64,000 nucleotides of DNA, taken from the IMG/VR virus record IMGVR_UViG_2974599810_000001, positions 7,425 to 71,424 of that record. One strand, written 5' to 3'. The translations under genes were made by a program, and so were the position numbers. Shown here in pieces: positions 7,128 through 41,950 of this stretch (the stretch's first letter is position 1; each line of letters opens with the position of its first letter). The notes under the pieces are model-generated. The model was given only the letters and a program-made list of their open reading frames with translations. It did no database searches and was not told the origin of the DNA. The stretch comes from a virus. Its lineage: Duplodnaviria > Heunggongvirae > Uroviricota > Caudoviricetes > Demerecviridae.

Positions 7128-7454
7128 TCATGGGAGACGCCATACGTAATTAGCTGTCTGTAGGATCTTAGGTGTGTCATCACTATACATTACTACAGAC
7201 TTTGGTGAATAGCTATCAGCTAGTTCTTTACGAATCATTTCACACTCTTCACCAGTATCAATATTTTTAACTATCACTTTCATATTAAGTGGTGTTAATA
7301 CAGAAAGTGGTTTCCAGGAGTCCTCAATCTCAATTCCTACCTTTTTCTCAATTATCATGAGAACTTCTAATGTATCATCCGGAATACTAATATTATTATT
7401 CACAAACTGTAATATCTCATGTAAGGTATTTAATTCATTAAAATTAAGCTTCAT
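7128..7454 (-). CDS. hypothetical protein (108 aa)
   Basis: ORF. Confidence 0.45.
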   Translation of the reverse strand: MKLNFNELNTLHEILQFVNNNISIPDDTLEVLMIIEKKVGIEIEDSWKPLSVLTPLNMKVIVKNIDTGEECEMIRKELADSYSPKSVVMYSDDTPKILQTANYVWRLP

Positions 7455-12929: not shown

Positions 12930-13343
12930 TTAAACTAGTTCGACATGACCGCCATCATAGGTACCACGTTTTATTTCATCGTGATAATCTCCCGAAGCAT
13001 TCCAATCAGCACCAAAGCGAAGTTTAATGCCTAGTTCTTTACCCGCTTGTTCAAAAGCCTTTTTAACTGCCCAAAATGCTTCTAAATCATTCCAATCAAT
13101 TTTGCCATTAATGTATGGAGCAAAATCAAGGGCATCCCCAGTAATATGCTTGCTTTTACTAGGATCTTTTAAAAATGAAGTACCATTAGCAATATTCTGG
13201 GCACTTTGTGCTACTGTACGAATACCCTGTACGATCGTGAAATCATATGGAGATAATTCTAAAGCTCTACGAGCTACTTTTTGTAGCTCTGGCTTAACGG
13301 TAGCTAATTGTTTTTCGCTATTTTTACCAAATTTAAAACTCAT
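12930..13343 (-). CDS. lys: endolysin, zinc L-alanyl-D-glutamate peptidase (peptidase M15 family)
   Basis: HITGDALDFAP and DGGHVEL metal-ligand motifs; 137 aa matches the reported size of the T5 endolysin. Confidence 0.8.
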   Translation of the reverse strand: MSFKFGKNSEKQLATVKPELQKVARRALELSPYDFTIVQGIRTVAQSAQNIANGTSFLKDPSKSKHITGDALDFAPYINGKIDWNDLEAFWAVKKAFEQAGKELGIKLRFGADWNASGDYHDEIKRGTYDGGHVELV

Positions 13344-13996
13344 ATTGATCTACCTAAAGATCTCTGTTGTGGGGAACAGAGCTTTGTTAAATACTCGTTA
13401 AATTTCTCAGAATCGGCTGCATCTACAGGATTATCTTTCCAAGCAATACCAATATATCCAGCATAGATATTGTTTAGATTGAAATACGGACAAGTGTATA
13501 TGTAATTAAAAGTAACGTTCTTAAACGCAGGTATATTTAACCCCATGTATTTATTTACTTTTACACTTAAATCCGATGCGTAGTTGAAGCCGTCTAAGTG
13601 ACGTCTATATAGCTCAGACGTTTTATTTACCGCTTTATCAGCCAAGTCAGCCCTATCTAATTGCGCATTGCTTTCCCATGCAATAATGTTAGAATAATCA
13701 TTAACGGCATCGGGTTTATACTTGACGACAAAAACAGCATCCGCACCCGTTTGGGAGAAAAGCACCATGCTCTTTTCTCTAGCTACGTTAGGAAAATTAC
13801 TTATCCTTTGAGTTTGAACATCCTGTAGAACCGCAGACGTGGAGAAAGTCTTTAAGAAAGACATCACCTCGCTAGTATTACTAACAAATAAGAAAATAAT
13901 GACAGCAACTAAGATAGTTAGCAGACGTTTAAGAAGCGACGCTGGATCTTTCGCTTCTTGGAGCAGTACCGTTAATAATTGTAAGAACTTTTCCAA
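13340..13996 (-). CDS. putative holin (218 aa, N-terminal TM)
   Basis: Immediately upstream of and overlapping the endolysin; TM LLTILVAVIIFLFV. Confidence 0.5.
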   Translation of the reverse strand: MEKFLQLLTVLLQEAKDPASLLKRLLTILVAVIIFLFVSNTSEVMSFLKTFSTSAVLQDVQTQRISNFPNVAREKSMVLFSQTGADAVFVVKYKPDAVNDYSNIIAWESNAQLDRADLADKAVNKTSELYRRHLDGFNYASDLSVKVNKYMGLNIPAFKNVTFNYIYTCPYFNLNNIYAGYIGIAWKDNPVDAADSEKFNEYLTKLCSPQQRSLGRSI

Positions 13997-28770: not shown

Positions 28771-28848
28771 TGGTGGCTCCCCGAGGATTCGAACCTACGT
28801 ACCTTCCGGTTATGAGCCGGGTGCTCATACCATATGAGCTTGAGAACC
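28771..28848 (-). tRNA. tRNA anticodon CAU (third CAU species; T-stem imperfect)
   Basis: Acceptor GGTTCTC/GGGAGCC, D-arm GCTCATA..TATGAGC, anticodon arm CCCGG-CTCATAA-CCGG. Confidence 0.45.
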
Positions 28849-28964: not shown

Positions 28965-29483
28965 TTAGAAATTTAGCTTCATAGCAAGAAAATTTTTCAA
29001 GTTTTCGGTAGACATCTCATCCACATCTACAGGAGAAACAAAGCCGTTTAATTTTCTAGCAAATTTTTCACCATCGGGATCATTGTCCCCGACAGCTACC
29101 AATTTAAAAGGTAGTAATTTCAGTTGCTTTAATAACGCTTTTCCTGGAGAAGAACCCAACATTGCCAGGGCTGGATAACCCGCATTATGTAACGCAACTG
29201 CCTTAAATACAGATTCAGCAATCAATACTACTTTTTCATCTCCATTGAGAGTTTCTAGTCCCCATACACACTGTGTAGTAGAGTAGGTAAAATATTTAGC
29301 CTCAAAGGGGCATTTACCATGCCCTTTTGGAGCAGAAGGATTATACGTCTGATAGCCCCTCAACATCCCAGAGAAGTCATACAATGGGACTGTTAGCCAC
29401 CCTTCCGGGCTTAACCAGCAATGATATTTATCTGTATCAAATCCTCTAGATAAGAGGTGCTGTGTTAGCTCATCAACATTCAT
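28965..29483 (-). CDS. Toprim-domain protein (about 173 aa from the MNVDEL start)
   Basis: LVAVGDNDPDGEKFA (Toprim DxD) and AESVFKAVAL motifs; internal Met with RBS GAGAGAGGAA; start coordinate +/-1. Confidence 0.5.
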   Translation of the reverse strand: MNVDELTQHLLSRGFDTDKYHCWLSPEGWLTVPLYDFSGMLRGYQTYNPSAPKGHGKCPFEAKYFTYSTTQCVWGLETLNGDEKVVLIAESVFKAVALHNAGYPALAMLGSSPGKALLKQLKLLPFKLVAVGDNDPDGEKFARKLNGFVSPVDVDEMSTENLKNFLAMKLNF

Positions 29484-29514
29484 ATCTGATTCCTCTCTCA
29501 AATTTATAGATATA

Positions 29515-29543
29515 TTATACAGAGAATTTAGCATTCAAGCAAT
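29515..29543 (-). promoter_or_regulatory. conserved early promoter (TTGCTT-17-TATAAT)
   Basis: Hexamers seen. Confidence 0.6.
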
Positions 29544-29660
29544 CAAAATTTTTAATTTTTTAGAGAAAAATCATAGGGCACTTAAGGGTAGCGGATAAGT
29601 GGTGAGGACCAAAATTTGTGACCCCACTAAAAATCCGGGGGCAATTTTTAAAGACCCCTT

Positions 29661-29689
29661 GACATTTTCGCTGGGGTAGTGTAAAGTAT
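29661..29689 (+). promoter_or_regulatory. plus-strand sigma70 promoter (TTGACA-17-TAAAGT) for the low-complexity cassette
   Basis: Consensus -35 with a plausible -10; followed by AGGAGGTG RBS and ATG at 29750. Confidence 0.55.
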
Positions 29690-29749
29690 ATGTTATGGAT
29701 GAGTGATCAAAGAGACACACATTTTCTATATACTAGGAGGTGTCAAAAA

Positions 29750-30742
29750 ATGACAGAAGAAGTAGCTAAGAGTCCTGAGACCGTCGCTAGCGTTGCAGCA
29801 GAACTGCACCGTCACGAGGAATCAGATAAGAAAAAGTGGGAGAAGGTCAGAGCCTACGAAGAGAAACATCGTGAACACGATGAAGATGATGAAGAAGATG
29901 ACGATGATGAGTATTGTCATAAATATGGAAAACGTAAAATGCAAGAACCAGTAAACGTATTCACTAGTGGCTTCCCTGGCCTAATGGGTGGTTACCCAGC
30001 AAACGCAGGTGCTTTTGGTGGTGAAGGTATGGGTCTATTCGGAGCTATCCTAATCGGTGCTCTATTAACAGGCGGATTCGGTGGTTTCGGTGGATTCGGT
30101 GGACGTGGTGTAGTTGGTGATGGTACCGCAGTTGATGCAGTACTTCAGAACCAAGATACCGCTAGTATTCTAGCAGCTATTAACACTACTCGTACAGAAG
30201 CTAATCAGGGTACTGGAGCTGTTTTAAGCGCAGTTAACAATGGTTTTAGCCAGACATCCCAAAACCAGAGCCGTGATACTCAGTCTGTACTAACTACGAT
30301 CTATGGTACAGGTGCTAATCTGTCTAATCAGATCTGTCAGGAAACTCGCAACGTTATTCAGGGTCAGTTCGATCTTTCTCGCCAGATTGATCAATCTTTC
30401 GCAGCTAACCAGATAGCTCGTGCGCAAGATAAGTTTGATTCTGCACAGATCGCTTTCCAGCAGACTTTACAAACTAATAACCAGTTTGCCGCTGTTCAGG
30501 CTCAGATGTGTGCTAACCAGAACTCTCTGGAACGTCAGATCGCTGAATGTTGCTGTGAACTTCAGACTGCGATCGCTGGTGTAACTACTGCGCGTATCCA
30601 GGATGAGTTAGACGCATGTCGCCTACGTGAAGCAATCGCTGCGGGTAGCGGTGCTAACGGTCAGGTAATTAATCAAATCGCTTTAAGTCTTGGTGCTATC
30701 ACTCAGACTCTGGCTGGTCTGCAGGCTAAACTGCCGGCTTAA
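29750..30742 (+). CDS. low-complexity protein (330 aa): acidic N-terminus (DEDDEEDDDDE), glycine-zipper/TM-like segment (GLFGAILIGALLTGGFGGFGGFGG), long Q/N/A/S/T-rich C-terminal region
   Basis: ATG at 29750 with AGGAGGTG RBS, in frame with listed ORF 29690..; host-optimal codons (CTG, CGT, GGT, CAG). Confidence 0.6.
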   Translation: MTEEVAKSPETVASVAAELHRHEESDKKKWEKVRAYEEKHREHDEDDEEDDDDEYCHKYGKRKMQEPVNVFTSGFPGLMGGYPANAGAFGGEGMGLFGAILIGALLTGGFGGFGGFGGRGVVGDGTAVDAVLQNQDTASILAAINTTRTEANQGTGAVLSAVNNGFSQTSQNQSRDTQSVLTTIYGTGANLSNQICQETRNVIQGQFDLSRQIDQSFAANQIARAQDKFDSAQIAFQQTLQTNNQFAAVQAQMCANQNSLERQIAECCCELQTAIAGVTTARIQDELDACRLREAIAAGSGANGQVINQIALSLGAITQTLAGLQAKLPA

Positions 30743-30763
30743 TATTAAGGGGAGGAGCCCATT

Positions 30764-31192
30764 ATGAGTAAATATGGTTTTGTAAATAACGGACTTAATC
30801 AAAGTATGGGCTCCCAGCAGCCCATTCCGGGTCTAGATAACCCCTACTTACAACAATTGCAACAGCGTTTAGCAGAAGCGCAACAGATGCAGCAACAACT
30901 CCAGCAAAACCCTGGAAGTGTGAGTCCTATGCAAATGATGCAGCAAATGAATGGGCAGTCGCAAATGCCCCAACAAATGCAGCAACAGATGCAGCAACAG
31001 ATGCCGCAGCAGCAAGTTCAGCAACAAACCCAACAACCGCAGGTTTCTGCGGAAGGACAGGCAGTACTAGCCCTTTTCGAAGACTTCGCAAAGACAGAGG
31101 ATGGGAAGCAGCTTGTATCACTTATGGGTAAGTTTAATAGCTTCTGCCAAAGCCAAGTTGCAAAAGCTCAAAATGGTGGTAATAACTCCTAA
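30764..31192 (+). CDS. polyQ/M-rich protein (142 aa; QQMQQQMQQQMPQQQVQQQTQQPQ)
   Basis: RBS GGGGAGGAG upstream; extreme Q content. Confidence 0.55.
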   Translation: MSKYGFVNNGLNQSMGSQQPIPGLDNPYLQQLQQRLAEAQQMQQQLQQNPGSVSPMQMMQQMNGQSQMPQQMQQQMQQQMPQQQVQQQTQQPQVSAEGQAVLALFEDFAKTEDGKQLVSLMGKFNSFCQSQVAKAQNGGNNS

Positions 31193-31201
31193 GGAGGAAT
31201 T

Positions 31202-31396
31202 ATGTGTTGCAGAAAATCTGTTTCGTGCTGCCCAATGCCTGTAGCACGTTGTTGCTCTTCAGCAATGTTTACACAAATACCGGCGTTCAATCCGTTTGCC
31301 TTTAAGCCTACTCTTATCCTGCCCCCTAGAGTAGATTTTCAGTCAAGGTTGGCCTCCCGTATGGGTGGTTGCTGTAATAAGAGTATATGGTTCTAA
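31202..31396 (+). CDS. small Cys-rich protein (64 aa; four CC doublets)
   Basis: RBS AAGGAGGAA upstream; MCCRKSVSCCPMPVARCCSS..GGCCNK. Confidence 0.45.
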   Translation: MCCRKSVSCCPMPVARCCSSAMFTQIPAFNPFAFKPTLILPPRVDFQSRLASRMGGCCNKSIWF

Positions 31397-31409
31397 AGAA
31401 CCAAACAAT

Positions 31410-31445
31410 AAAGCCCCTAGTCGAAAGACTTAGGGGCTTTTCTTT
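31410..31445 (+). terminator. rho-independent terminator (AAGCCCCTAG..CTAGGGGCTT + TTTCTTTT)
   Basis: Perfect 10-bp stem plus T-run closing the plus-strand cassette. Confidence 0.7.
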
Positions 31446-31460
31446 TATCTTAAATACAGA

Positions 31461-31495
31461 AAAACCCTGCGCTCTTCAGGGAACGCAGGGCTTAC
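31461..31495 (-). terminator. rho-independent terminator for the minus-strand SPFH gene (GCCCTGCG..CGCAGGG + T-run)
   Basis: Hairpin plus TTTTTC on minus strand; faces the plus-strand terminator. Confidence 0.6.
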
Positions 31496-31516
31496 TTCAG
31501 ATGTTACATGCGGGTA

Positions 31517-32464
31517 TTATTTATTACGCATATCCATGATCATTTGACCATCGTAGCCAGTACCTACCACAGTCTGGGGTACACCACCTTGATATTTCTG
31601 AGCACGAATCATTTCGACTTCCAGTTGCTTCCAGCGAATCATCTCAGGAGTAATGGTACGTTGTAATGCGGCGTTAGCTTCAGCTTCTTTCTTAGCTGCG
31701 TATAGTTTAGCATCTGCGTCACGTTCATTGGCAATAGCTTGGTTGTTGCGGGCTTCACGATCTGCTTCTGCTTGTTTAACTTTTTGCTGTGCTTCCTGCT
31801 CAACACGAGCTAATTCAGCTTTAGCAGCATTAACCTGTTCTTCACGAACTTTGGTATTCTGTACCTGTTCCATGATTACCGGTGGCAAAGTAATATCCTG
31901 AAGGAACACCTGCTTAACTGTGTAACCATATGGGCGTGCGTACTCTTCAACTTCCTGTTGAATTGCAGTTTGCAATTGAGCCTGAATTTTAGCATCAAAC
32001 AAATCTTGTGCTTTAGGTACAGACTTACCAAACTCACGAATAGTAGACAGTAATTTTTCAGTTACATATTTGTCTAACGCTTGATCCTGAGTACCTGCAT
32101 TAATACGGTTAATCGGTGCCTTAGAACCATCAAACTGCAACATAACAGTCAGGTCAACAGTGGATTTAAACTTATCCTGACTAGGAACCTGAAGTTTATC
32201 TAATTTTAGAGCAATATCTTTTGTACTAAAAGTATCGAAAGAAGCAAAAGGATTTACAATATGAAAGCCGGGTAATACTGGATTAGGGTCTACTTTACCC
32301 AGGAAAGTCTGGGTTTTAACAGTACCGTCTTGAACAACAGTATAGGAGTTAAGGGCCAGAACTAAACCTACCAAACCAACTGCAGCACCAATACCCCAAC
32401 GTTTGATATTACGCATCAATTTTTGCTCATAAGTCAGTTCTTTAGTGTTTTTAGTAGCAAACAT
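31517..32464 (-). CDS. SPFH/band-7 (prohibitin/HflK/C-like) membrane protein
   Basis: N-terminal TM, then YTVVQDGTV..FLGKV..LPGFHI..PF band-7 core, long coiled-coil C-terminus. Confidence 0.7.
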   Translation of the reverse strand: MFATKNTKELTYEQKLMRNIKRWGIGAAVGLVGLVLALNSYTVVQDGTVKTQTFLGKVDPNPVLPGFHIVNPFASFDTFSTKDIALKLDKLQVPSQDKFKSTVDLTVMLQFDGSKAPINRINAGTQDQALDKYVTEKLLSTIREFGKSVPKAQDLFDAKIQAQLQTAIQQEVEEYARPYGYTVKQVFLQDITLPPVIMEQVQNTKVREEQVNAAKAELARVEQEAQQKVKQAEADREARNNQAIANERDADAKLYAAKKEAEANAALQRTITPEMIRWKQLEVEMIRAQKYQGGVPQTVVGTGYDGQMIMDMRNK

Positions 32465-32498
32465 ATATTTCCTTTGTTTTAGTTACAGTTAATAAAAT

Positions 32499-32573
32499 TG
32501 GCCGAGGTGACAGGATTCGAACCTGCATAAAGGAATTTAGAAGACTCCTGCCTCTCCCTTAGACTACACCCCG
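32499..32573 (-). tRNA. tRNA-Arg (UCU)
   Basis: Acceptor CGGGGTG/CACCTCG, G73, anticodon arm GGAGT-CTTCTAA-ATTCC, T-arm GCAGG-TTCGAAT-CCTGT. Confidence 0.65.
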
Positions 32574-33370
32574 TTTAAGTATTTTTAAGAACTCTCGTAA
32601 AAACTCTTAAAAATACAGACGATACCGGGAGAGTCATAAGTCTCACTCATTAAGTATTTCAAGACAAAATACGGTAACGTCTATTATTTTCCAGTTTAAG
32701 TCAGGGTGACTTAGTGGTTATGTCCTGCGGTATATTGAGGACTCGGTTAGGCTTGGGGTCATGACTTCCCGCCTTTTGCTGCTACTCAACAGGAGTTATC
32801 GCGAATTACCTGTGATATTGTGCACCATTAGTGACATCTCTCATGTCAGCATTTCCCACTTTGTGGATAGCTTGAAAAACTACTCCGATATGGAGGAAGA
32901 ACTTCACTATCCTAGAATACCTTCTAAAGTTCTTCTTTAGCCTGGACATAGTTAAATCGTAATAAAACTATTCAGCAGACTGGTTGGTTAGTCTGGAACC
33001 AACTACCGCGTGGTTTAGGCAGTGCGCAACTAACCTCGGAAGCTTTTACATTAAAAGCACCAGTTATCCAGTTCTTACCGACCGTAGGATTCGAACCTAC
33101 ATCTTCCACCAGTTACGGCTTGATAATACCAATTATATTAGGACGGCAGTGTTACTACATAAGTGATTTCCACACCCCACTATTTATAAATTAGAGAAGA
33201 GTTTAGGGGAGAGGTTTCAGACGCCTCATTTTACACGTTCTAGCCACTAACCGGGATTGCCGCCCCCTGTGTACTAGTTTTACAACTAACCCACCGACTC
33301 TATTCAATGCGCTCCGGTTGGGATTCTGCACTCAGCGTAATCGGCTCGCTGTTCCCTAATTTATGAATAT

Positions 33371-33399
33371 ATTATACAGAATTTAAATGCATTTAGCAA
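33371..33399 (-). promoter_or_regulatory. conserved early promoter pointing into the 800-nt ORF-free region and tRNA-Arg
   Basis: TTGCTA-17-TATAAT on minus strand. Confidence 0.55.
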
Positions 33400-33407
33400 A
33401 TAAATTT

Positions 33408-33851
33408 TTAATTAAATTCGCCAGCAATCTGAGCAGCAGTACCACCATCATAACGCCCAGGAAATTCTTCCTTAATCGCTTTCATCAGCATACCTTTTGT
33501 AATTCCAGGGTTTAGCTTAACTAATTCTGCAAAGTATTTACGAATCTCAGTATCAGATAACTGAGGAGGCAGATACTCCTGCAACCACTTATTTAGAATG
33601 TATTCATACTGAGCAGACTGCAAGCTATAACTATCAAGATCTTGACCATGAAGTTTAGCTTTCATCTGGTTAATGCTTTTTAGTTGAGCTTTGAGATAAG
33701 ACACAAATTGTTCAGAAGTGATGAAATCTTTATCAATACGCTGAAGATCCCCAATTATGGTCTGATAGCTTTTAGCGACTTCTTTATCAGAACCATTAAA
33801 CTTAGAATCCTGCAAAGCTCTACGCAAAACATCTAAAATATTCTCTTCCAT
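33408..33851 (-). CDS. GatB/YqeY-domain-like protein (147 aa)
   Basis: Helical protein ending ..GRYDGGTAAQIAGEFN, reminiscent of YqeY domain proteins; weak. Confidence 0.4.
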   Translation of the reverse strand: MEENILDVLRRALQDSKFNGSDKEVAKSYQTIIGDLQRIDKDFITSEQFVSYLKAQLKSINQMKAKLHGQDLDSYSLQSAQYEYILNKWLQEYLPPQLSDTEIRKYFAELVKLNPGITKGMLMKAIKEEFPGRYDGGTAAQIAGEFN

Positions 33852-33855
33852 TATT

Positions 33856-34023
33856 TCATTCCTAACGCTTGGTTAAAAGATTGTTCTGTCATAACTGCTG
33901 AGACTTTGGCGAAATCAAACTTTTTAGGGTTCGTAGTGATTTCAGCAACGTTAGAAGTTTTAACAGTTTTCGTAGTACGAATACCGCGAGTGTTAACACC
34001 AATAATTACAACTGATTTCATAC
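33856..34023 (-). CDS. small protein MKSVVIIGVNTRGIRTT.. (about 56 aa, below the track cutoff)
   Basis: Hand translation; RBS GAGAGGAAG upstream; sits between promoter 34053 and gene 33408.. Confidence 0.35.
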
Positions 34024-34052
34024 TTCGCTTCCTCTCATTAATTTATGGAAGT

Positions 34053-34081
34053 ATTATACGGAAATTTAAGTATTTAAGCAA
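34053..34081 (-). promoter_or_regulatory. conserved early promoter
   Basis: TTGCTT-17-TATAAT. Confidence 0.6.
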
Positions 34082-34089
34082 GTAAATTT

Positions 34090-34557
34090 TTAAGTTTTAG
34101 TGACAACAGGTTTATAAAACGTATGTCCCTTAATCTTAGTTGTTTTCTTAAACTTCTTTGTCCAGTAAGGTTTATCTTTACCACTATGGAAGTATAGTGC
34201 TCCATATGTAGGATCTTGTGGTAAATCAACGTAGTATATCACTCTAGCTAAATTCTTAGCGGTTTGCCAAGCCTCATCAGTTTTATCAACTTTTGGTCTC
34301 TTAGATACCCAAGAGAACTGGTTAGACTGATATACTACTTTACAGTAGGAATCTGGGAATTTACCGGAGTTTACACGGTTTTTAGTAACATGTGCAATCG
34401 CCGTCATTCCCTTTATGCCCTCACCACGACTCTCGAAATAGATATTTTTAGCAATGCAATCTATTTCTTTTGCATCGTGCGATGCCTGACTACTAAAGCT
34501 GAAGGTAAGGGCAGCTACTAAAAGCAAAGCTGCCTTCATTCTTTTTACTCCTGCCAA
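34090..34557 (-). CDS. secreted cell-wall hydrolase (SleB/CwlJ Hydrolase_2-like)
   Basis: Signal peptide; NIYFESRGEG..AIAHVTKNR..YQSNQFSW motifs. Confidence 0.6.
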   Translation of the reverse strand: MAGVKRMKAALLLVAALTFSFSSQASHDAKEIDCIAKNIYFESRGEGIKGMTAIAHVTKNRVNSGKFPDSYCKVVYQSNQFSWVSKRPKVDKTDEAWQTAKNLARVIYYVDLPQDPTYGALYFHSGKDKPYWTKKFKKTTKIKGHTFYKPVVTKT

Positions 34558-34862
34558 TCATATTCAACACGATTGGGATTTTCTTTATACCCTAAGTCAA
34601 GCAAATCATTACGCATATTTTGCTTAGCTACTGGGTTCGAGGTTACTAGTACCACTTTCTTTGGTCTCTGCCCAAATTCTAAGAGTAAACGAAGAATTTG
34701 ATAACCTTCCATACCATCTACAGCCAAGTCATTATCCATATAAACGAAATGGCCTGTGGTATCAGTTTTATTCAGAAACTCTACAGCGGCTTCTGGGGTT
34801 CGAATGATAATGTCCATTCCGTGAAGATTACGCACATCATCAATCAAAATATGAAAAGTCAT
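34545..34862 (-). CDS. CheY-like receiver-domain-like protein (105 aa)
   Basis: ILIDDV..DIIIRT..FVYMDNDL..GMEGYQIL..KVVLVTSN pattern resembles the receiver fold; weak. Confidence 0.35.
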   Translation of the reverse strand: MTFHILIDDVRNLHGMDIIIRTPEAAVEFLNKTDTTGHFVYMDNDLAVDGMEGYQILRLLLEFGQRPKKVVLVTSNPVAKQNMRNDLLDLGYKENPNRVEYDWQE

Positions 34863-34892
34863 AATAGCCTCGTTTCATCAATTTAAAAATAT

Positions 34893-34921
34893 ATTATACA
34901 TATAATTTAGTAGATTAGCAA
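34893..34921 (-). promoter_or_regulatory. conserved early promoter
   Basis: TTGCTA-17-TATAAT. Confidence 0.6.
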
Positions 34922-35304
34922 ATACATTTTTAAATTGTGAAACTAGTAAACCGATAAACAGCCTAGAGGCGCCACAGGCCATATCTTATGAGCCATGTAC
35001 CTTTGATCTAGGGTTTGAATCATCAACGAATACTTTGCATCTTTTAGCTTTAGAAGTTTAGAAGTTTGAGTTCTTTAAACTTTTCAGCTTTCATACTTAA
35101 ATGTTGATCTTTGAAGTTGTGTCGGTAATATCAACGACGCTTTGTTCTTACGTGTCAGCTTAAAAGGCTGGTGTAATAAACATAATCTCCAATAGATTAT
35201 ACTTTATAGTATGGTCAGCGGTCCTATTTAACCTCGTATTTCAACCGCTGCTGCGAGGTAAGATGCTTGGGCTTTCGTCTACCGATTTACTAGCTTTTAA
35301 ATTA

Positions 35305-35943
35305 TTACTCTACTTCAATGAAGGTAGAGGCGTTAGACTCGGACAGAACAAAGTCAACATTTGTTGCAAAGTCCTGGTATTCCTCGTCATGCTGCTTAAT
35401 CAGCTTTTCCAGTTCCAGCGGATCAATCAAGAATGGAGTATTCTTGAGTTCCAGCAGGTTGAGCTGCATTTTAACTTCATCTTCGGAAGTTTTCTTATCG
35501 CGGGTAGCCATGCTATCCTGCAAACGCTCATATTTAGCATCAAACTGTGCTTTCTGCGTATTAAACTTAACCGTAGCGGCATGGAACTGCTTACGCATGT
35601 TAGCCAGCAGTTGAGCTTTAAGCTCCATAGAACGCTTAGCTTCAATTGCTTCCGCAACAGTCATTTTACGAGAACCGATCTCAACTATTGTTTCTGCATT
35701 GCTCTTAATCAGAGCAGATTTGATACTATCACGCTTAGACATCATATCCAGTAGAGACTGGAAATCAGTCTTAATACGAGTAGACAGGGCATCTATTTCG
35801 ATTGCAGCGCCAACTACAACCTGGTTTTTATCCTTACCTTCACCAACAGCAATCAGGAGCTGTTGTTCAGTAGCTTTACGGATTTTAGCTTCCAGAGATT
35901 TGATAGTTGCCAGAGCGCGAGTTTTAGAAATACGAGTAGTCAT
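35305..35943 (-). CDS. coiled-coil hypothetical protein (212 aa)
   Basis: Long ORF, helical composition. Confidence 0.5.
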   Translation of the reverse strand: MTTRISKTRALATIKSLEAKIRKATEQQLLIAVGEGKDKNQVVVGAAIEIDALSTRIKTDFQSLLDMMSKRDSIKSALIKSNAETIVEIGSRKMTVAEAIEAKRSMELKAQLLANMRKQFHAATVKFNTQKAQFDAKYERLQDSMATRDKKTSEDEVKMQLNLLELKNTPFLIDPLELEKLIKQHDEEYQDFATNVDFVLSESNASTFIEVE

Positions 35944-35996
35944 TATTTGCTTCCTTATATGAAGTTTGAGATTTGAATTTGTTTAAATTTGGTCTA

Positions 35997-36179
35997 TTAC
36001 AGACCAATTGCCAGCAGAGTGCGCAGAACAGTATCGTTACTGTTATCAATTTTAGGATTAGCACGATTTAGCAGATCAAAGATTTTCTGGACACCTGATT
36101 GACGTTCAGCCATACGACGGATACCCAGATTACGAGTAGCTTTCTTACCATTTTTACGAACATTTTTAGATACTGGCAT
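35997..36179 (-). CDS. small basic protein (60 aa)
   Basis: ORF downstream of the promoter at 36220. Confidence 0.4.
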   Translation of the reverse strand: MPVSKNVRKNGKKATRNLGIRRMAERQSGVQKIFDLLNRANPKIDNSNDTVLRTLLAIGL

Positions 36180-36219
36180 ATTTGTTTTCCTTTTATTGTT
36201 TTCTCAAATTTATGAATAT

Positions 36220-36248
36220 ATTATACAGAATTTTGGGGCCGGAAGCAA
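36220..36248 (-). promoter_or_regulatory. conserved early promoter
   Basis: TTGCTT-17-TATAAT. Confidence 0.6.
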
Positions 36249-36249
36249 A

Positions 36250-36951
36250 TCAAATTTTCATTTTTTCGATCATAGCTGCAACACAATAGCTCTCAACTAA
36301 GGCATCGAATGCTGGGTCGTGCTTAACCGGATAGATCCCATAACGAATGGTGTCCATCTTCTCCATTTTAGCTTTTGCCCAGCTAACACCTTCAGCCTCT
36401 AGATCTTTGTAACTATAACCCGCTTGCATCCAGAGATTACGAAGAGATCGAACATTGCCCAAATTCCAGAATTTCCACGGAACTACTTCTCCATTGGTTC
36501 CAGCATGGAACGTGTTTGCAGAGTAGATAGTCATATCAAACTCTGGACCATTACCATAATACAAAGCATTTTCGCCTAGAGCCAACTCCATAATATTTTG
36601 AGCCATAGAGAAGGCAGCATAGTTTGAGCCTAATTTATTAGTGCAATGATGTTTACCATTTTGGAAGGCAATCAGTTTTGGATTACGTTCCCTCATAGCT
36701 TCCATAATGTGGATAGCAGACGGGCTATTTTTAGCTTGATCCATCCAGAATGCTAGAGTAGATGCTGTAACTTTGGCACCAGAATTAAGTTGATCTTGTA
36801 CATCCAAAGTAACAAATACTAGATCAGGGTCTTTATCAATTCCATGCATAGCCACAAAAGCGAATGAAGGCATTGCTATATGAGTAGTACCACAGTCTCC
36901 TGGAGTTCCTAGAGATTCAATATCTAGCATACCAAATGGTTTTACTTTCAT
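36250..36951 (-). CDS. DEDDh-type 3'-5' exonuclease (DnaQ-like)
   Basis: Exo I MLDIESLG and Exo III YPVKHDPAFDALV motifs. Confidence 0.55.
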   Translation of the reverse strand: MKVKPFGMLDIESLGTPGDCGTTHIAMPSFAFVAMHGIDKDPDLVFVTLDVQDQLNSGAKVTASTLAFWMDQAKNSPSAIHIMEAMRERNPKLIAFQNGKHHCTNKLGSNYAAFSMAQNIMELALGENALYYGNGPEFDMTIYSANTFHAGTNGEVVPWKFWNLGNVRSLRNLWMQAGYSYKDLEAEGVSWAKAKMEKMDTIRYGIYPVKHDPAFDALVESYCVAAMIEKMKI

Positions 36952-36979
36952 AACTTATCCTTTATTGTGTAGAAAACTA

Positions 36980-37216
36980 TTAAAGAGCTGTCTCTTTAAT
37001 AGACTCCCACTTCTTGGGGTCTTTAAAACCAGGAAGCATATCCTCACTGACATCCCAGTTTTCTTCTATAGAGAAGTCGGGCCATTCATTCCAGCTACCT
37101 TCTAGCTCTTCATAACAGGTGTCCATTACCTCATGACTAGAAAGTCGTGTATAATCTCTAGCGGACTTATGAGTGCTAGCACGGTTAAAATCATTCTTTG
37201 CTACAAAATTACGCAT
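36980..37216 (-). CDS. hypothetical acidic protein (78 aa)
   Basis: ORF. Confidence 0.4.
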   Translation of the reverse strand: MRNFVAKNDFNRASTHKSARDYTRLSSHEVMDTCYEELEGSWNEWPDFSIEENWDVSEDMLPGFKDPKKWESIKETAL

Positions 37217-37257
37217 AGTTTCTCCAAATAAGAGGGGCTTTCGCCCCTATTTATCTA

Positions 37258-37773
37258 TTACTTCGCTTTACGCTTGCGAGCTGGTTTAGCAGATTTACGA
37301 GCGGAATCACCCGTGAACTTAATGCCTACACCGTAACACAGAGCACGAACATTATCTTTACTATACTCTACGCCAAAGATATTTGGTTTAACAGAACCAA
37401 ACTGTCCACGAGTATCACGCAATACATCTGCTGTTGGTTTACGCTTCTGGTTAACTGCCTTCTCATAGTCTTTCATAGACATACCATTACGAGAGAACAA
37501 TTCAGCCCCAGCGTTGAAGCTCAGGGAAACTGAGACAGATTTGTGGCCGTAATTTTCTACATACATAACCATTTTGTAGGATTTACGGGTGGCATTTTTA
37601 GCTTTAGGCTTCTGACGAATAGGAGCCGGATTATTCAGTGCTTGCGCAGCCTGAGCATCGGTAGGATGCTTACGCAGGTGGCGTTCCAGACGAGCTTTGC
37701 GATTAGCCTCGGTCTGCGGGAAAGTTTTAACTGCCGGAGCTGCTTGAGTTTTTGCGTTTTTCTGCTTAGCCAT
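37258..37773 (-). CDS. basic hypothetical protein (171 aa; Lys/Ala-rich termini)
   Basis: ORF downstream of the promoter at 37812. Confidence 0.5.
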   Translation of the reverse strand: MAKQKNAKTQAAPAVKTFPQTEANRKARLERHLRKHPTDAQAAQALNNPAPIRQKPKAKNATRKSYKMVMYVENYGHKSVSVSLSFNAGAELFSRNGMSMKDYEKAVNQKRKPTADVLRDTRGQFGSVKPNIFGVEYSKDNVRALCYGVGIKFTGDSARKSAKPARKRKAK

Positions 37774-37811
37774 TATTTGTTTTCCTTTTTGTTTATCAAT
37801 TTATGAAGTAT

Positions 37812-37840
37812 ATTATACGAGAATTTGAAGCGTTTAGCAA
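37812..37840 (-). promoter_or_regulatory. conserved early promoter
   Basis: TTGCTA-17-TATAAT. Confidence 0.6.
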
Positions 37841-37856
37841 ATGAATTTTTTAAAAA

Positions 37857-38135
37857 TTATCTACCAACCATCTTAGCTTGTTCGGCATCTGAGACATATT
37901 GATACGCTCCTTTATTATACGCTGGAGCAGTACACATTTTCTTACGCTCAATCTCTTCTTGAGCTTTTCTTTCGCGTTCAGCTAATTCTTCGTCCAGATA
38001 AACTAAACGTTGTTCTGGAGGAGGTGGAAGTCGTGTCTCTGGCTCACCAATATTAGCCTTTCTTATTTGACGAGGTGATTGTGCACGTTTTCTCAATGGT
38101 TTAAATCCTAATGAATTTGAGTTATAGATCCGCAT
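37857..38135 (-). CDS. hypothetical protein (92 aa)
   Basis: ORF. Confidence 0.45.
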   Translation of the reverse strand: MRIYNSNSLGFKPLRKRAQSPRQIRKANIGEPETRLPPPPEQRLVYLDEELAERERKAQEEIERKKMCTAPAYNKGAYQYVSDAEQAKMVGR

Positions 38136-38160
38136 AAAGCCCTCCTCACTTTCAATACGA

Positions 38161-38189
38161 ATATTATACTAAATTAGAAGGCTTTAAGC
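38161..38189 (-). promoter_or_regulatory. conserved early promoter
   Basis: TTGCTT-17-TATAAT. Confidence 0.6.
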
Positions 38190-38212
38190 AAGAAAATTTT
38201 TTAATTTATTTA

Positions 38213-38689
38213 TCACATCTCGGCAAGTTCTTGCTCAGTAATAACTGTGTTACATAAGGCATCTACAGCTTCATTACCACTAATACCAGAATGTCCTTTA
38301 ACCTTAATAAAGGTAGGGTTAGTATTATGAAAGTTGATATACTGCTGTGTTAATTTAAATGCTTCCTGCCAAAGTTCTAGATTAAGAGGAACTTCACCAT
38401 CTGCTTTCTTCCAGCCTTTCCTTTGCCAAGAAAACATCCAACTTTCCATGCCATTTTTGCAATAAGCAGAGTCAGTATAGATAGCAATTGGTCTATTATC
38501 TTTTTTAACGGACCAACGTAGAGCTTCTACAATAGCTGTGAGTTCCATCTCATTATTTGTGGTTTTAGGATTATAACCAGATTTAGAGCCTAAACGATCG
38601 TCGTTATCATTATAGACAATAAAACCCCAAGCACCTGGACCTGGGTTAGACTTACAAGCACCATCTGTGTAAATGTGGAAAACCGACAT
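38213..38689 (-). CDS. rnh: ribonuclease H (RNase HI-like)
   Basis: HIYTDGAC, ELTAIVEAL, IYTDSAY motifs; start at MSVFH with GGGAGG RBS (TAATG coupling). Confidence 0.85.
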   Translation of the reverse strand: MSVFHIYTDGACKSNPGPGAWGFIVYNDNDDRLGSKSGYNPKTTNNEMELTAIVEALRWSVKKDNRPIAIYTDSAYCKNGMESWMFSWQRKGWKKADGEVPLNLELWQEAFKLTQQYINFHNTNPTFIKVKGHSGISGNEAVDALCNTVITEQELAEM

Positions 38690-38970
38690 TATACCTCCCA
38701 ACTAATTTTAAGACCCATGTCTACAAAGGCAGCTTCTCGGTAGTATTGAGAGATATGATACCCCTTATCCGATAAGGTTTTTAGTACCGATTTAGCTGCC
38801 CCTGGCATTTCTCTAGGATTATATAGCCACCTAGCGTAAGGATTATCTCGAATAATTACTTCTGTATTTCCAGACTTAGCAGCTTCTACAATCTTTTCTT
38901 CTATAAACTTTAGAAATGCTGGTACTTCTGTTAATCCTGCAAGTTCTTGAGCTTCTTTGGCTGAAATCAT
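38689..38970 (-). CDS. hypothetical protein (93 aa)
   Basis: ORF downstream of the promoter at 38996. Confidence 0.5.
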   Translation of the reverse strand: MISAKEAQELAGLTEVPAFLKFIEEKIVEAAKSGNTEVIIRDNPYARWLYNPREMPGAAKSVLKTLSDKGYHISQYYREAAFVDMGLKISWEV

Positions 38971-38995
38971 TATATACCTCCAATTTATAAAATAT

Positions 38996-39024
38996 ATTAT
39001 ATTTAAATCTCACTAAATAAGCAA
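38996..39024 (-). promoter_or_regulatory. conserved early promoter
   Basis: TTGCTT-17-TATAAT. Confidence 0.6.
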
Positions 39025-39063
39025 ATGAAATTTAAATATAATAGCCCCGAAGGGCTATTTGAG

Positions 39064-39417
39064 TTAAATTATAATTAAGATTATGAGAGCATAGGTTAAG
39101 TAATGGAGTAACTGATCAAATCCTAAAGCTATCCAAAACCTGGAATCACTTATATCGTATTTACAGCATTGTGCTTTCCAGTAATCTATGATAAAGTGTA
39201 GAATTAATTCCATTATAGCTAAAGTTATAGCCATTCCTAGTGATGTGAACATAGTAAGAATTATAAAGGTTAGTCCAGCATGTACTAGAGAATGGGTTAG
39301 TAATGGAAGTTTCCATCCTATTTTGTTGGTCTTCCTTAACATGTATGGAGTTTGGAGGGGATAATCAGCCATAAAATGTTTCAAGAAGAATATAACAAAT
39401 AATAATATTGTCAACAT
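39064..39417 (-). CDS. membrane protein (117 aa)
   Basis: Hydrophobic helices. Confidence 0.5.
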   Translation of the reverse strand: MLTILLFVIFFLKHFMADYPLQTPYMLRKTNKIGWKLPLLTHSLVHAGLTFIILTMFTSLGMAITLAIMELILHFIIDYWKAQCCKYDISDSRFWIALGFDQLLHYLTYALIILIII

Positions 39418-39420
39418 ATA

Positions 39421-40275
39421 TTATACCGTAAAGGGATATGCAATAGCAGGGTGGTGTTCGTAACCACGAACAGTAAAATCATCCTTACTTACCCAGGTCA
39501 ATACATCCTCTAGAGTTCGGATATTTGGATTGATTTCTAGAGTAGGATGTGCAAAAGGTTTACGATCGAATTGCTTATGCTCCATCAAAACATTATACTG
39601 ATCCTCATAGATATGAAGATTGATAATCTTCTGGCGTGCAATTCCAGGTTTAAGGCCTGTAATCTGTGCCATTAATGCTAGAAGCGTATAGCACTGAACC
39701 ATGTTAAATACTTGGCCTAACAGGAAGTCATTAGATCTCTGGAAAGAGTTCAGGTATAACGTATCTCCCAAAATAGAGAACTGATGAGTGTGCATACATG
39801 GACGTAAGCAACCCTTTGAGAACTCTCCCGGATTCCAGAATGTTAGAATTTCCCCACGATCATCAATGCCCTTCTTCAGGTTATGATAAATCTTGGCTAG
39901 TTGGTCAAACATAAGACCATCGGAATTAGTCCACTGACGTCCTTGAACACCATAGACTCGTCCCATATCATCCTCACCTTTACGGTATGGATTGTCTAGC
40001 CAAGCTAAGTTTTCATTTGCATTAGCATTCCATGTGTTAACACCAATAGCGCGGAATTGTGCTGCTGAGTCATACCCACGTAGATACCCAATCATTTCCA
40101 TTATTGCTTGTTTTGCAAACGCCTTACGGGTAGTAATAAGGGGAAATTCACCTGCACCTACGTTAAAAGTAAAATCTGCATCAATAATAGTTAGGCAACG
40201 AACCCCTGTTCTAGGATTCGTTACCCACTGACCTTCTGATAGAATACGTTTTCCAACTTCGATATACTGATCCAT
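39421..40275 (-). CDS. thyA: thymidylate synthase
   Basis: [10 protein letters not shown] (catalytic Cys) and [18 protein letters not shown] motifs. Confidence 0.9.
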
Positions 40276-40808
40276 TAATAAGTAACCAATTCCTGTACAA
40301 ATCGCAGGCTGTTATCACTGTTTGCGCCGGTTGCGTAAACTAAACGAGTAGATTCATAGTTGTAATCTAGAATCATATTATCCAGATGTACATCTGCCTC
40401 TAGTTTTTGATTACTAAAGATTGTTGATACAAAAGCACTTTCAATATGTCCATGAATATACATTTCGTACAGTAATGTTGCGCCACCTAAAACCACTGTC
40501 TGTTGATCTTTTAAGAATGTAGGTAATGTATCCCCAATCTTAGAAATTGGAGTGTAAATACTATGTTTAATATCATCAGGCAGAGGACGATCCGCACGAA
40601 TAAAGAGGTCAGATTCTCCAATCATACGTTGCCGAACAACTTCTGGAAGTGCTAAATAAGTACCCGCACCAATGATGATGTTATCTGGATTCAACACGTC
40701 CAGTTGAGAGTAGAAAGCATCTAGTTCTTCTTTGAAGGAACCCCATGGAAGTTTACCTCGGAGGCCGAACTCCCCGTTCGGCCCAACTGCATATATTGCT
40801 GTAATCAT
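40275..40808 (-). CDS. folA: dihydrofolate reductase
   Basis: [23 protein letters not shown]-terminal DHFR signature; ATGA coupling to thyA. Confidence 0.85.
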
Positions 40809-41950
40809 AAGAAATCTCCAAATTCATTACCCAGATCTTTCAGAGTATCCGTAGAGGTCTCAGTTACCTGACCTACACGGTAGGCTGCACCAATCTGGAT
40901 TTCTTGTGGAGCAGGCTGTAAAGAAGTGGTATCCAACCAGTTCATGATCCACGGAATAGGGTTTTTGGTGATTACTGGTAAATGACTAGGCCATTCTACA
41001 CCAATGTGCATAAACGCATTACGTCCCACAAAGTACAAATACTCTTCTAGAAGTTCTGCATTCAGGCCAATCAGACTACGACCTTTGAAAATGAAGTGAC
41101 CCCATTCAATTTCAGTTTTCAGAGTTTTCAGGAGCTGTGCTGGTGCTTTAGCCACTGCTTCATCCACCAGGTCTTTGTCAAACTGCTGGAACATAATCTG
41201 GATGATTGCTTTGGACATCTGAGTGTGCAGAGCTTCATCTTTAGCGATTAATTGCAGATTTTTAGCAATACCTTGCAGAATATCGTTCTCTGCTAATGCA
41301 AAGGTACATGCAAAGGATGCGTAAAACTGCATTGCTTCCAGACCATAGATCGCAAAGTAAGCGTCTAATAACTTAGCCTGAGTTTCACGTTTAACTTCAG
41401 GGAACTCAGTTTCTGGGTATGTATTGTCGCCACGATGATCGCGTACTGCAATGAAATACTGACCTAACTGGTACAGTTCATCGAATAGTTCAACAGAATC
41501 AGCGATGCGTGCGAATGCTTCTTGGTTTTTGGTTACAGAATCAATAAATTCTGCTGGATCAGTTAACACATTACGAATAATATTGCTATAAGCACGACTA
41601 TGCAGATCTTCAAAATAGCTCCACTGCTTGAGCATACCTTCCAATTCTGGACGACTTACAAGCGGCATAATAGCTGCTTCAGGAGCACGACTGATAAAGG
41701 AATCAGTTTGAGTCTGCCATGCTAAGTTCAGGAGTGTAATTTCCTGAATTTCACGCGGGAGATTAGGCCATTGTTTCTTATCTGCTTCCAGACTGATTTC
41801 AGTTTCAGTCCAAAATTGAGAGCGTTGCAGAAGTGCCAGACGTTCTAGTTCTGGATGTGCTACACGTACATAATCTGCGATACCGAGAGAATCTCCCAGG
41901 AAAAGGTCAGCGTTAGTATGATCCCAATTCAGGTTTAGTAAAGTAGTCAT
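40805..41950 (-). CDS. nrdB: ribonucleotide reductase class Ia small subunit
   Basis: Ferritin-like di-iron motifs (..DEALHT.., EAMQFYASFA..); adjacent to nrdA. Confidence 0.9.
   Translation of the reverse strand: MTTLLNLNWDHTNADLFLGDSLGIADYVRVAHPELERLALLQRSQFWTETEISLEADKKQWPNLPREIQEITLLNLAWQTQTDSFISRAPEAAIMPLVSRPELEGMLKQWSYFEDLHSRAYSNIIRNVLTDPAEFIDSVTKNQEAFARIADSVELFDELYQLGQYFIAVRDHRGDNTYPETEFPEVKRETQAKLLDAYFAIYGLEAMQFYASFACTFALAENDILQGIAKNLQLIAKDEALHTQMSKAIIQIMFQQFDKDLVDEAVAKAPAQLLKTLKTEIEWGHFIFKGRSLIGLNAELLEEYLYFVGRNAFMHIGVEWPSHLPVITKNPIPWIMNWLDTTSLQPAPQEIQIGAAYRVGQVTETSTDTLKDLGNEFGDFL

Follow-up and report, generated by a model that had tools for sequence, protein, structure and literature searches.

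Why should a phage carry, in the midst of some 42 kb of genes read the other way, a three-gene unit with its own promoter and terminator, and what might the products of this unit do? The question is raised by a stretch of 64,000 nucleotides (the window; positions 7,425 to 71,424 of the IMG/VR virus record IMGVR_UViG_2974599810_000001, Demerecviridae), in which a plus-strand cassette at positions 29659-31446 comprises a promoter, three open reading frames (ORFs) for proteins of 330, 142 and 64 residues (here P1, P2 and P3) and a terminator. Over bases 29600-31500 the sequence agrees without a difference (100%) with that of Salmonella phage L6jm (MN956514; Tequintavirus, Demerecviridae), and more than 200 further T5-like phages match it at 83-98% identity. 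In the annotation of MN956514, every coding sequence between window positions 3576 and 45505 (~42 kb) lies on the minus strand with the cassette as the sole exception, as an initial annotation made from the bare sequence had noted, and the 22 transfer RNA (tRNA) genes of the window lie on the minus strand too. The three ORFs, their sizes and a Shine-Dalgarno sequence ahead of each likewise came out as that annotation had described them. The genes are orthologues of T5.077, T5.078 and T5.079 of phage T5 (T5p075-077 in AY734508): over the full unit the T5 copy is 89% identical at the nucleotide level, and its three ORFs, promoter (P12), terminator (ter1) and flanks (the primase-like T5.076 and the SPFH gene T5.080) all match, with no material difference. 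The T5 records annotate a 'promoter P12', an 'efficient bidirectional rho-independent transcription terminator' and, directly downstream of the cassette, a 'major DNA single-chain interruption'. The existence of the cassette, catalogued as T5.077-079, is thus not new, and the early impression that it had no equivalent fails both on this count and because homologues of P1 in crAss-like phages already bear labels. T5 is a model phage, in which these genes have stood mapped with their promoter and terminator for twenty years with no function assigned: the products of all three genes are labelled 'hypothetical' in every record seen, and our literature searches found no functional study of T5p075-077 or T5.077-079.

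Our analyses lead us to conclude that the cassette is an autonomous, mobile and dispensable accessory operon. Its chief product, P1, is very probably abundant and anchored in a membrane, P2 is a dedicated soluble partner, and the third gene is a Cys-rich micro-ORF. What is new is that P1 is one member of an unnamed family, very large and spread across phages, in which a Cys-Cys-Cys (CCC) motif is invariant, that the polyQ protein P2 is an adaptor-like partner specific to the branch of this family that bears an additional N-terminal domain, and that the unit moves between phage families. As to its function, which we infer, we tentatively favour a mobile moron-like operon with the cytoplasmic membrane as its site of action, where it would serve superinfection exclusion or counter-defence. 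We lean towards such a conditional membrane role because the unit behaves like a moron, lies in a neighbourhood of accessory and counter-defence genes, and has no laboratory phenotype.

A survey of related phages showed that the cassette is not universal: the full unit is present in 218 of the 416 phage records with a match to some part of it, and the rest match the terminator region only, which is the sole part common to relatives without the cassette. In those Epseptimaviruses that have it, the cassette is placed between a NadR-like gene and the SPFH gene, and Epseptimavirus SE24 has identical flanks with the cassette missing. The proteogenomics paper on phage phiR2-01 reports no plus-strand genes inside the early block g011-g090, so this phage appears to lack the cassette as well. 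Furthermore, an N4-like contig (L012 4278-4675 and 5001-6314) carries promoter, P1 and P2 as a plus-strand island with a terminator. This P1-P2 unit adjoins minus-strand tRNA genes, like all T5-like lineages, an adjacency that could reflect either a preferred landing site or a functional link. In Escherichia phage EscoHU1 (L016 3387-3917) a gene for an HNH endonuclease lies between ORF3 and the SPFH gene, and in T5 the HNH gene hegA (T5.075) lies a few genes upstream of the cassette; L6jm is without hegA. Homing endonucleases may help to mobilise this region.

The dispensability of the cassette is indicated by deletion mutants and by a knock-down screen. T5st0 is infectious and has been widely used in structural work. 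Its deletion (33667-41891), as given in the T5 record, takes out the entire cassette. T5Mos (deletion 30661-38625) grows normally on permissive cells (PMC11464382) and, provided its coordinates follow NC_005859, has lost the promoter and half of T5.077. In a genome-wide CRISPRi-ART knock-down screen, T5.077, T5.078 and T5.079 are listed as of 'unknown function' and all as 'Not Fit' (PMC11879866 supplement). The initial annotation had suspected a moron, and its case for autonomy holds: the cassette has its own promoter and terminator, an orientation opposed to 42 kb of neighbours, a variable presence at one site and, as far as these mutants show, no essential role. With morons and exclusion proteins it therefore has in common an autonomous promoter-gene-terminator unit set against local transcription, which is non-essential, variably present and encodes a (predicted) membrane protein. 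Classical morons, however, are expressed from a prophage to the benefit of the lysogen, whereas T5-like phages are virulent; because the carrier here is a virulent Tequintavirus, we use the term 'moron' by analogy only. Known exclusion proteins, among them the membrane proteins T4 Imm/Sp, HK97 gp15 and T5 Llp, are small and lineage-specific, whereas the P1 family spans phages of at least three bacterial phyla, and we found no sequence similarity between the cassette and known morons or exclusion proteins.

The control elements of the unit point in the same direction. A promoter of its own, as first proposed, is supported by its correspondence to P12 in the T5 records and by a consensus scan of positions 29400-31700, in which TTGACA-17 nt-TAAAGT, with 10 of 12 consensus matches, was the sole sigma-70-like match. 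The promoter and its AT-rich upstream stretch are kept in two T5-like metagenomic contigs (L010 and L011) whose P1 is just 43% identical. Since the discriminator ATATG of the cassette resembles the ATATT consensus of T5 early promoters (PMC7472727), the sequence suggests that the cassette is expressed early. Downstream of the promoter, bases 29678-29737 are near-invariant, with a mean pairwise difference of 0.005 as against 0.05-0.30 elsewhere (seven phages); the RNA fold of the leader is not significant (z -1.1), and this stretch may have a regulatory role, be it in the control of translation or in promoter escape. We take 29750 to be the start codon of P1 because an in-frame ATG upstream of it, at 29690, loses its frame through a 1-nt deletion in five of eight relatives. 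The terminator (hairpin 31410-31440; -20.2 kcal/mol, z -5.54, with a T-run behind it) is strong, as claimed at the outset, but not 'perfect', given its 1-nt bulge. Finally, the claim that all three genes use host-optimal codons held for one of them: by the codon adaptation index (CAI), computed with a Sharp-Li w table, P1 scores 0.445 (rank 5 of the 68 ORFs), which leads us to expect high expression, whereas P2 (0.236) and P3 (0.214) fall under the window median of 0.275. The coordinates of all these elements are collected in Table 1.

Table 1. Features of the plus-strand cassette, in window coordinates (RBS, ribosome-binding site)
Feature	Coordinates	Strand	Description
Promoter (T5 P12)	29643..29687	+	AT-rich upstream stretch AATTTTTAAAG, -35 (TTGACA, 29659-29664), 17-nt spacer, -10 (TAAAGT, 29682-29687), then discriminator ATATG
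5' untranslated leader	29688..29749	+	includes RBS AGGAGGTG (29735-29742)
P1 (330 residues; T5.077 orthologue; PHROG 8119, E 2e-204)	29750..30742	+	ORF
P1 putative membrane anchor, residues 95-117	30032..30100	+	GLFGAILIGALLTGGFGGFGGFG; hydrophobic, glycine-rich, small-xxx-small
P1 Cys267-Cys268-Cys269	30548..30556	+	CCC motif in QIAECCCE; family-wide invariant
P2 (142 residues; T5.078 orthologue; PHROG 7894)	RBS AAGGGGAGGAG 30747-30757, ORF 30764-31192	+	ORF
P3 (ORF3; 64 residues; T5.079 orthologue)	RBS AAGGAGG 31191-31197, ORF 31202-31396	+	ORF
Rho-independent terminator (T5 'ter1', bidirectional)	31410..31446	+	13-bp stem, one bulged base, GAAA loop, T-run

We then asked what the architecture of P1 might say about its place in the cell. 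The protein begins with a highly charged N-terminal domain (residues 1-94; 24 D/E, 13 K/R and 5 H), for which AlphaFold2 predicts a confident helix at residues 12-44 (predicted local distance difference test score, pLDDT, ~90) together with a disordered acidic tract. Behind it lies the sole strongly hydrophobic stretch of P1, where the Kyte-Doolittle score over 19 residues peaks at 1.72 (residues 95-113; GLFGAILIGALLTGGFGGF). This putative anchor has a small residue at every fourth position (G/A/G/T/G/G) and GGF repeats, and its glycines are the sole invariant columns in our alignment A1. A glycine zipper had been suggested here, and the glycine-rich hydrophobic helix is borne out, whereas the canonical form is not: the segment has no strict GxxxGxxxG and no match to the Pfam Gly-zipper families. 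An association of P1 with the membrane, and with it the initial idea of an envelope-associated system, fits this predicted segment. P1 as a whole is rich in A, G, Q and T. Its remainder is predicted to form long helices of modest confidence (residues 126-326; AlphaFold2 50-75). No significant heptad signal emerged (97 of 500 shuffles do as well), and we therefore call this domain helical and not a coiled coil. Across eight Markadamsvirinae that differ by 10-17% in DNA, P1 shows a synonymous divergence (pS) of 0.34 and a ratio of nonsynonymous to synonymous divergence (pN/pS) of 0.20 overall, with 0.17 in the anchor segment and the tightest constraint, 0.11, in the last 80 residues, which hold QIAECCCE.

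Structure prediction and profile searches were the routes by which the initial annotation had hoped to place these proteins; the former yielded long helices in P1, and the latter returned no significant match in the PDB. Two AlphaFold2 runs (pLDDT 54 and 62) gave long helices only, and a Foldseek search of the PDB with the model of pLDDT 62 ranked the membrane-remodelling proteins PspA, Vipp1 and ESCRT-III at the top, at E 0.8-3.5, probability up to 0.41 and TM up to 0.38; nothing fell under E 0.8. In line with an earlier statement, no enzymatic motif was recognised in P1, P2 or P3 with Pfam, NCBIfam, PADLOC or PHROGs, the only matches being to PHROGs of unknown function.

A word-indexed search with P1 had retrieved T5-like relatives and a few distant matches only. 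A profile search of 1.84 billion cluster representatives, by contrast, identified 923 proteins at E<=1e-3, of which 187 also pass E<=1e-10; almost without exception they are 240-335 residues long and match end to end. The family thus exceeds 900 representatives of clusters at 50% identity and reaches crAss-like phages, which are dominant in the human gut virome. It splits into two subtypes, of which subtype A has the CCC motif invariant and subtype B ends in a Gly/aromatic tail (...FWG). Among 48 diverse members, the CCC residues are the sole (nearly) invariant non-glycine columns. Most members begin 10-40 residues ahead of the anchor, and the N-terminal domain of ~90 residues is confined to T5-like and N4-like proteins, with HHHHHEH tracts in some relatives. 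Members occur in a myovirus-like contig, in crAss-like phages, in a cultured Bacteroides phage and in an N4-like contig that encodes a virion RNA polymerase, and also on contigs binned with Clostridiales and Eubacteriales. A pattern scan, built on a narrower alignment, of one genome for each of 185,579 species returned four P1-family loci, and we therefore regard the family as essentially phage-borne, mostly in virulent phages.

Outside the T5 group, the family is embedded in different modules. The members in PHROG 8119/9288/16490 and those of crAss-like phages have the anchor near the N-terminus, ~200 helical residues and the invariant CCC, but lack the 90-residue charged N-domain as well as P2 and P3. 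The P1-like gene is here always followed by one for a Cys-free ~97-residue beta protein (MASPIxVGTTA...FQNTG...), which gave no Pfam, PHROG or PDB match, and often by DUF7841 and a ~180-residue protein that matches ferritins over nearly its full length, a weak match (E 5e-4 to 2e-3) with six sequences behind it. The module with the ~97-residue protein was seen at loci L004, L021, L024-L028, L033, L038, L040, L042, L043 and L046. These genes lie in late or structural blocks, often downstream of a small sigma-region-4/helix-turn-helix gene; this had prompted us to consider P1 as an anti-sigma factor, but no anti-sigma motif is present. An endolysin domain lies within 4.5 kb of the P1 homologue in 3 of 11 loci, and capsid or ring proteins lie near others, so that the late, structural and lysis-proximal context points to no single function. 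In the crAss-like phage cr53_1 (L049 6702-7749), the genes adjoining the P1 homologue show in-frame stops under code 11, consistent with the stop-codon recoding described for some crAss-like phages.

The crAss-like homologues carry the labels 'spike protein/glycoprotein' or 'outer capsid protein/viral fiber'. The best PDB matches of the P1-family profile are to influenza HA2, over its fusion peptide and helix, at a non-significant E 0.06-0.3 (best 0.062), and the other, equally non-significant, matches are helical rods. It is likely that this resemblance is the source of the labels, which rest on weak similarity to helical rods and no experiments and which we consider misleading. The resemblance to class I fusion proteins nonetheless deserves to be weighed, since it raises the possibility that P1 is an accessory of lysis or envelope fusion, an analogue of a spanin or class I fusogen that uses a fusion-peptide-like segment and a helical rod to bridge or perturb membranes late in infection. 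P1 shares with HA2 a glycine-rich hydrophobic peptide followed by a long helix, and its family contains the hexapeptide GLFGAI, with which HA2 also begins; that crAss-like homologues were independently named 'spike protein/glycoprotein' goes with this, as does the Gly/aromatic tail of subtype B. In unrelated phages (L027, L040 and L043) the homologue lies one to four genes from holin-like or endolysin genes, in cr53_1 a holin and a LysB-like gene are upstream of it, and the endolysin Pfam matches mentioned above belong here too. Like the lambda spanins Rz/Rz1, moreover, the cassette sets a membrane-anchored, helical, Cys-containing protein beside a small Pro- and Cys-rich ORF, and some members of the family adjoin lysis genes.

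Several observations nevertheless make a role in lysis or fusion rather improbable. The HA2 matches are non-significant and heptads were not detected, so that we see a resemblance and no evidence of common descent. A holin, an endolysin and a two-component spanin, all canonical, are encoded elsewhere in T5-like phages (PMC4342426), and in the window holin and lysozyme lie at 12930-13996, away from the cassette. Neither P2 nor P3 has a lipobox or signal peptide (Kyte-Doolittle 19-residue maxima 0.45 and 0.89), so the cassette offers no partner with a lipoprotein signal. Plaque formation is unaffected by knock-down or deletion, the promoter looks early, and an outer membrane is lacking in the hosts of the Clostridiales and Eubacteriales contigs on which homologues are found. 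A canonical spanin we rejected outright: the anchor lies at residues 95-117 behind a 94-residue domain and not at the N-terminus, there is no lipobox, and the cassette stands outside the T5 lysis cassette and is dispensable for plaques.

The same gene neighbourhoods could be read as those of a virion or assembly set, with P1 serving in ejection, as cargo or as a fibre, and its hydrophobic segment entering the host membrane only upon infection. On a crAss-like contig the homologue lies immediately downstream of the major capsid protein, on a Clostridiales contig it is flanked by genes for a minor capsid protein and a scaffold, other annotators have given homologues the name 'outer capsid protein/viral fiber', and ejection proteins normally have hydrophobic segments. 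We consider such a role doubtful for the T5-like cassette, however. Infectious virions form from T5st0, which is missing the cassette; the virion proteins of T5 presumably map to the late region, whereas the cassette lies in the early/tRNA region behind an early-type promoter. The known virion proteins of T5 number 16 (PMC8624392). The virion atlas of phiCrAss001 does not mention gp33, by numbering the next after the major capsid protein gp32, and we found no P1 homologue in this phage.

The invariance of the CCC motif across the family raises a further possibility, namely that the cassette is a metal or redox module, in which P1 CCC, the CC doublets of P3 and the acidic, His-rich N-domain bind Fe, Zn or Cu at the membrane. 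The 12% Cys content of P3, the HHHHHEH tracts in some P1 N-domains and the ferritin match (E 5e-4 to 2e-3) of the third module gene in distant family members would agree with it. Nonetheless, the T5-like cassette has no ferritin-like gene, the ferritin match itself is weak, no known metal-binding motif or family was matched, and the cysteines of the cassette could equally make disulfides if periplasmic, which leaves this an unlikely account. A broader version is somewhat easier to entertain, though still less probable than the exclusion or counter-defence operon: the P1 family may be a hitherto unrecognised class of helical, membrane-anchored proteins, spread across phages and sharing a single conserved biochemical activity at the cytoplasmic membrane, centred on the Cys triplet, possibly a redox- or metal-dependent device for remodelling or protecting the membrane that very different phages (T5-like, N4-like and crAss-like phages, myoviruses and Firmicutes phages) have plugged into different modules. 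In T5-like phages it would have turned into an early, mobile operon, to which P2 belongs as a dedicated cytoplasmic adaptor and P3 as a Cys-rich micro-protein.

P2 itself (29% Q and 8% M) consists of a conserved N-terminal helix (YLQQLQQRLxEAQ), a Q/M/P-rich linker (approximately residues 46-93) that varies in length from a few residues to ~50, and a conserved C-terminal domain (residues 94-134; VSxEGQAVLALFEEFAKTEDGKQLVSxMGKFNSFCQS). Its overall pS is 0.40 and its pN/pS 0.23, the latter being 0.16 at the N-terminal end, 0.34 in the linker and 0.11 in the C-terminal domain. Because a faster-evolving stretch of variable length joins two conserved ends, the sequence identifies the polyQ stretch as a spacer. 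P2 is present beside P1 in every T5-like and N4-like contig examined, and its homologues are restricted to P1 proteins with the N-domain, that is, to all T5-like lineages and the N4-like contig; no relatives were found in the PDB or Pfam. The compositions listed in the initial annotation (an acidic start of P1, with 24 D/E in residues 1-94, a Q- and M-rich P2 and a P3 with CC doublets, four in number) were all confirmed. The reading of these compositions as those of prion-like, condensate-forming or bacteriocin-like low-complexity proteins has fared poorly and is now very improbable. It draws on composition only, that is, on the glutamine content of P2 and on the GFGGFGGFGG run and Q/N/S/T/A richness of P1. 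The Q/N-rich part of P1, however, is predicted to be helical, is conserved position by position across the 923 representatives and is under purifying selection (pN/pS 0.11-0.18), while the polyQ/M part of P2 shows the linker-like variation in length and sequence just described, only residues 46-93 having the loosely constrained sequence expected of such proteins. Likewise, no similarity to colicin or bacteriocin families, including their translocation domains, was found.

The third ORF raises the question of whether it encodes a peptide, an RNA or both. P3 has an MCC start (MCCRK), many prolines and a net charge of +7. All eight relatives compared keep ORF3 unbroken over its 64 codons; L010 and L011 have an ORF of 63-69 codons in its place, with the MCC start, an internal CC and an RBS of its own; and its pN/pS of 0.40 is the lowest among the six frames. 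For these reasons ORF3 is probably a real, translated gene, although the sequence evidence is weaker than that for P1 and P2. In databases P3 falls in one cluster only, because gene callers rarely call ORF3, and most relatives' records annotate just two cassette genes. In MN956514 the positions 31189-31290 hold a 33-residue minus-strand 'ORF79' and the plus-strand ORF3 is unannotated, whereas the T5 records have T5.079; ORF79 of L6jm is probably a mis-annotation. We also considered P3 as a split-off C-terminal tail of the subtype B proteins, which are longer (PxTVPV...GYGY...FWG), and rejected it, because a hidden Markov model of 44 such tails scored P3 sequences no better than shuffles, except that in the P3 of the window the final five residues did better.

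An additional role of the ORF3 region at the RNA level is possible. We regard it as a minority prospect, about as plausible as the phage-wide membrane class above, that ORF3 acts chiefly as RNA (such as a structured 3' region or an operon-derived small RNA) or serves as both RNA and protein. Synonymous divergence in ORF3 is 0.116, as compared with 0.34-0.40 in ORF1 and ORF2, and bases 31275-31334 are near-invariant. A long-range hairpin is predicted (-57.8 kcal/mol, z -2.68; 0 of 200 shuffles as stable), in which, among nine variable pairs, six are kept by one-sided change and one by double change; broken cells occur in three pairs (one of which has both), two of them in the short 3'-terminal helix. 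The covariation is not significant, however (60 of 500 shuffles), the region has no Rfam match, and both the lowest in-frame pN/pS of the six frames and the retention of ORF, MCC start and RBS where the RNA is too diverged to align speak for a protein.

How might the three proteins work together in the moron-like operon at the cytoplasmic membrane that we favour? An early-type, strong sigma-70 promoter would drive the unit and the bidirectional terminator would close it. P1 would be abundant, with its glycine-rich helix anchoring it in the cytoplasmic membrane, and could self-associate through small-xxx-small packing and through the Cys triplet, by disulfide or metal. P2 would be cytoplasmic, with a flexible Q-rich spacer between its conserved ends, and may dock onto the N-terminal domain unique to T5-like and N4-like P1, while P3 may join as a basic, Cys-rich micro-protein partner. 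Such a P1-P2-P3 complex could alter the host membrane or envelope in a general way without serving an essential step of the lytic cycle, and the gain would be conditional: competing phages might be excluded, or the infected cell shielded from host defences that target the membrane. The profile of P1, a probably abundant membrane protein with an invariant CCC that phages of three bacterial phyla retain although the laboratory can do without it, is that of genes that matter in nature, in phage competition or in defence and counter-defence. With its deletion mutants, knock-down tools and easy genetics, T5 makes the function of the family directly testable. If P1 proved to be no more than an ordinary exclusion protein, what is gained would be modest, namely a better annotation of several hundred phage genomes.

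A number of points weigh against this interpretation. No experiment or homology links P1, P2 or P3 to exclusion or counter-defence, and PADLOC returned nothing. The topology is contradictory: the charged 94-residue N-domain implies that P1 has its N-terminus inside and its C-terminus outside, in conflict with the charge bias of the flanks, since the C-terminal flank of the anchor is more often the richer in K+R (75 vs 14; 162 family members), which implies a C-terminus inside. The heptad signal lies within that of shuffles, and the AlphaFold2 confidence in the helical domain is just 50-75. Elsewhere the family occurs in late, structural or lysis-proximal blocks with other partners (the ~97-residue beta protein, the ferritin-like protein and DUF7841), and its conservation in phages that infect Bacteroidota, Proteobacteria and Firmicutes is not what one would expect of a fast-evolving exclusion factor. 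Finally, the proposed P2-P1 and P3-P1 contacts are drawn from co-occurrence alone.

The surroundings of the cassette include accessory and counter-defence genes, namely the tRNAs, T5.076 and, in Epseptimaviruses, NadR-like and PnuC genes. The orthologue of T5.076 (window 28965-29534, minus strand) is a Toprim/primase-like protein, listed in the CRISPRi-ART supplement as one that 'subverts retron-mediated defense', that is, as anti-retron (PMC11879866). NadR-like and PnuC genes adjoin the cassette in some Epseptimaviruses. On the other side, an SPFH/Band-7 membrane protein gene (T5.080; window 31517-32464, minus strand) is convergent with the cassette and has the terminator region in common with it; this gene shows high codon adaptation (CAI 0.424) and is kept in relatives without the cassette. 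A second strong hairpin at 31462-31493 (-22.4 kcal/mol) is the minus-strand terminator of the SPFH gene and contains, at 31469-31472, the GCGC of the consensus (Pu-pGCGC) for the 'major DNA single-chain interruption' of T5, so that a T5-type genome nick is probably located right at the edge of the cassette. We note, in addition, two Rfam tRNA matches on the minus strand that were missed by ARAGORN: one at 28774-28848 (40 bits), which sits where T5 has tRNA-Ile2(CAU), and another at 33076-33147 (35 bits), which falls in the T5 region annotated as the stable 'RNAX'.

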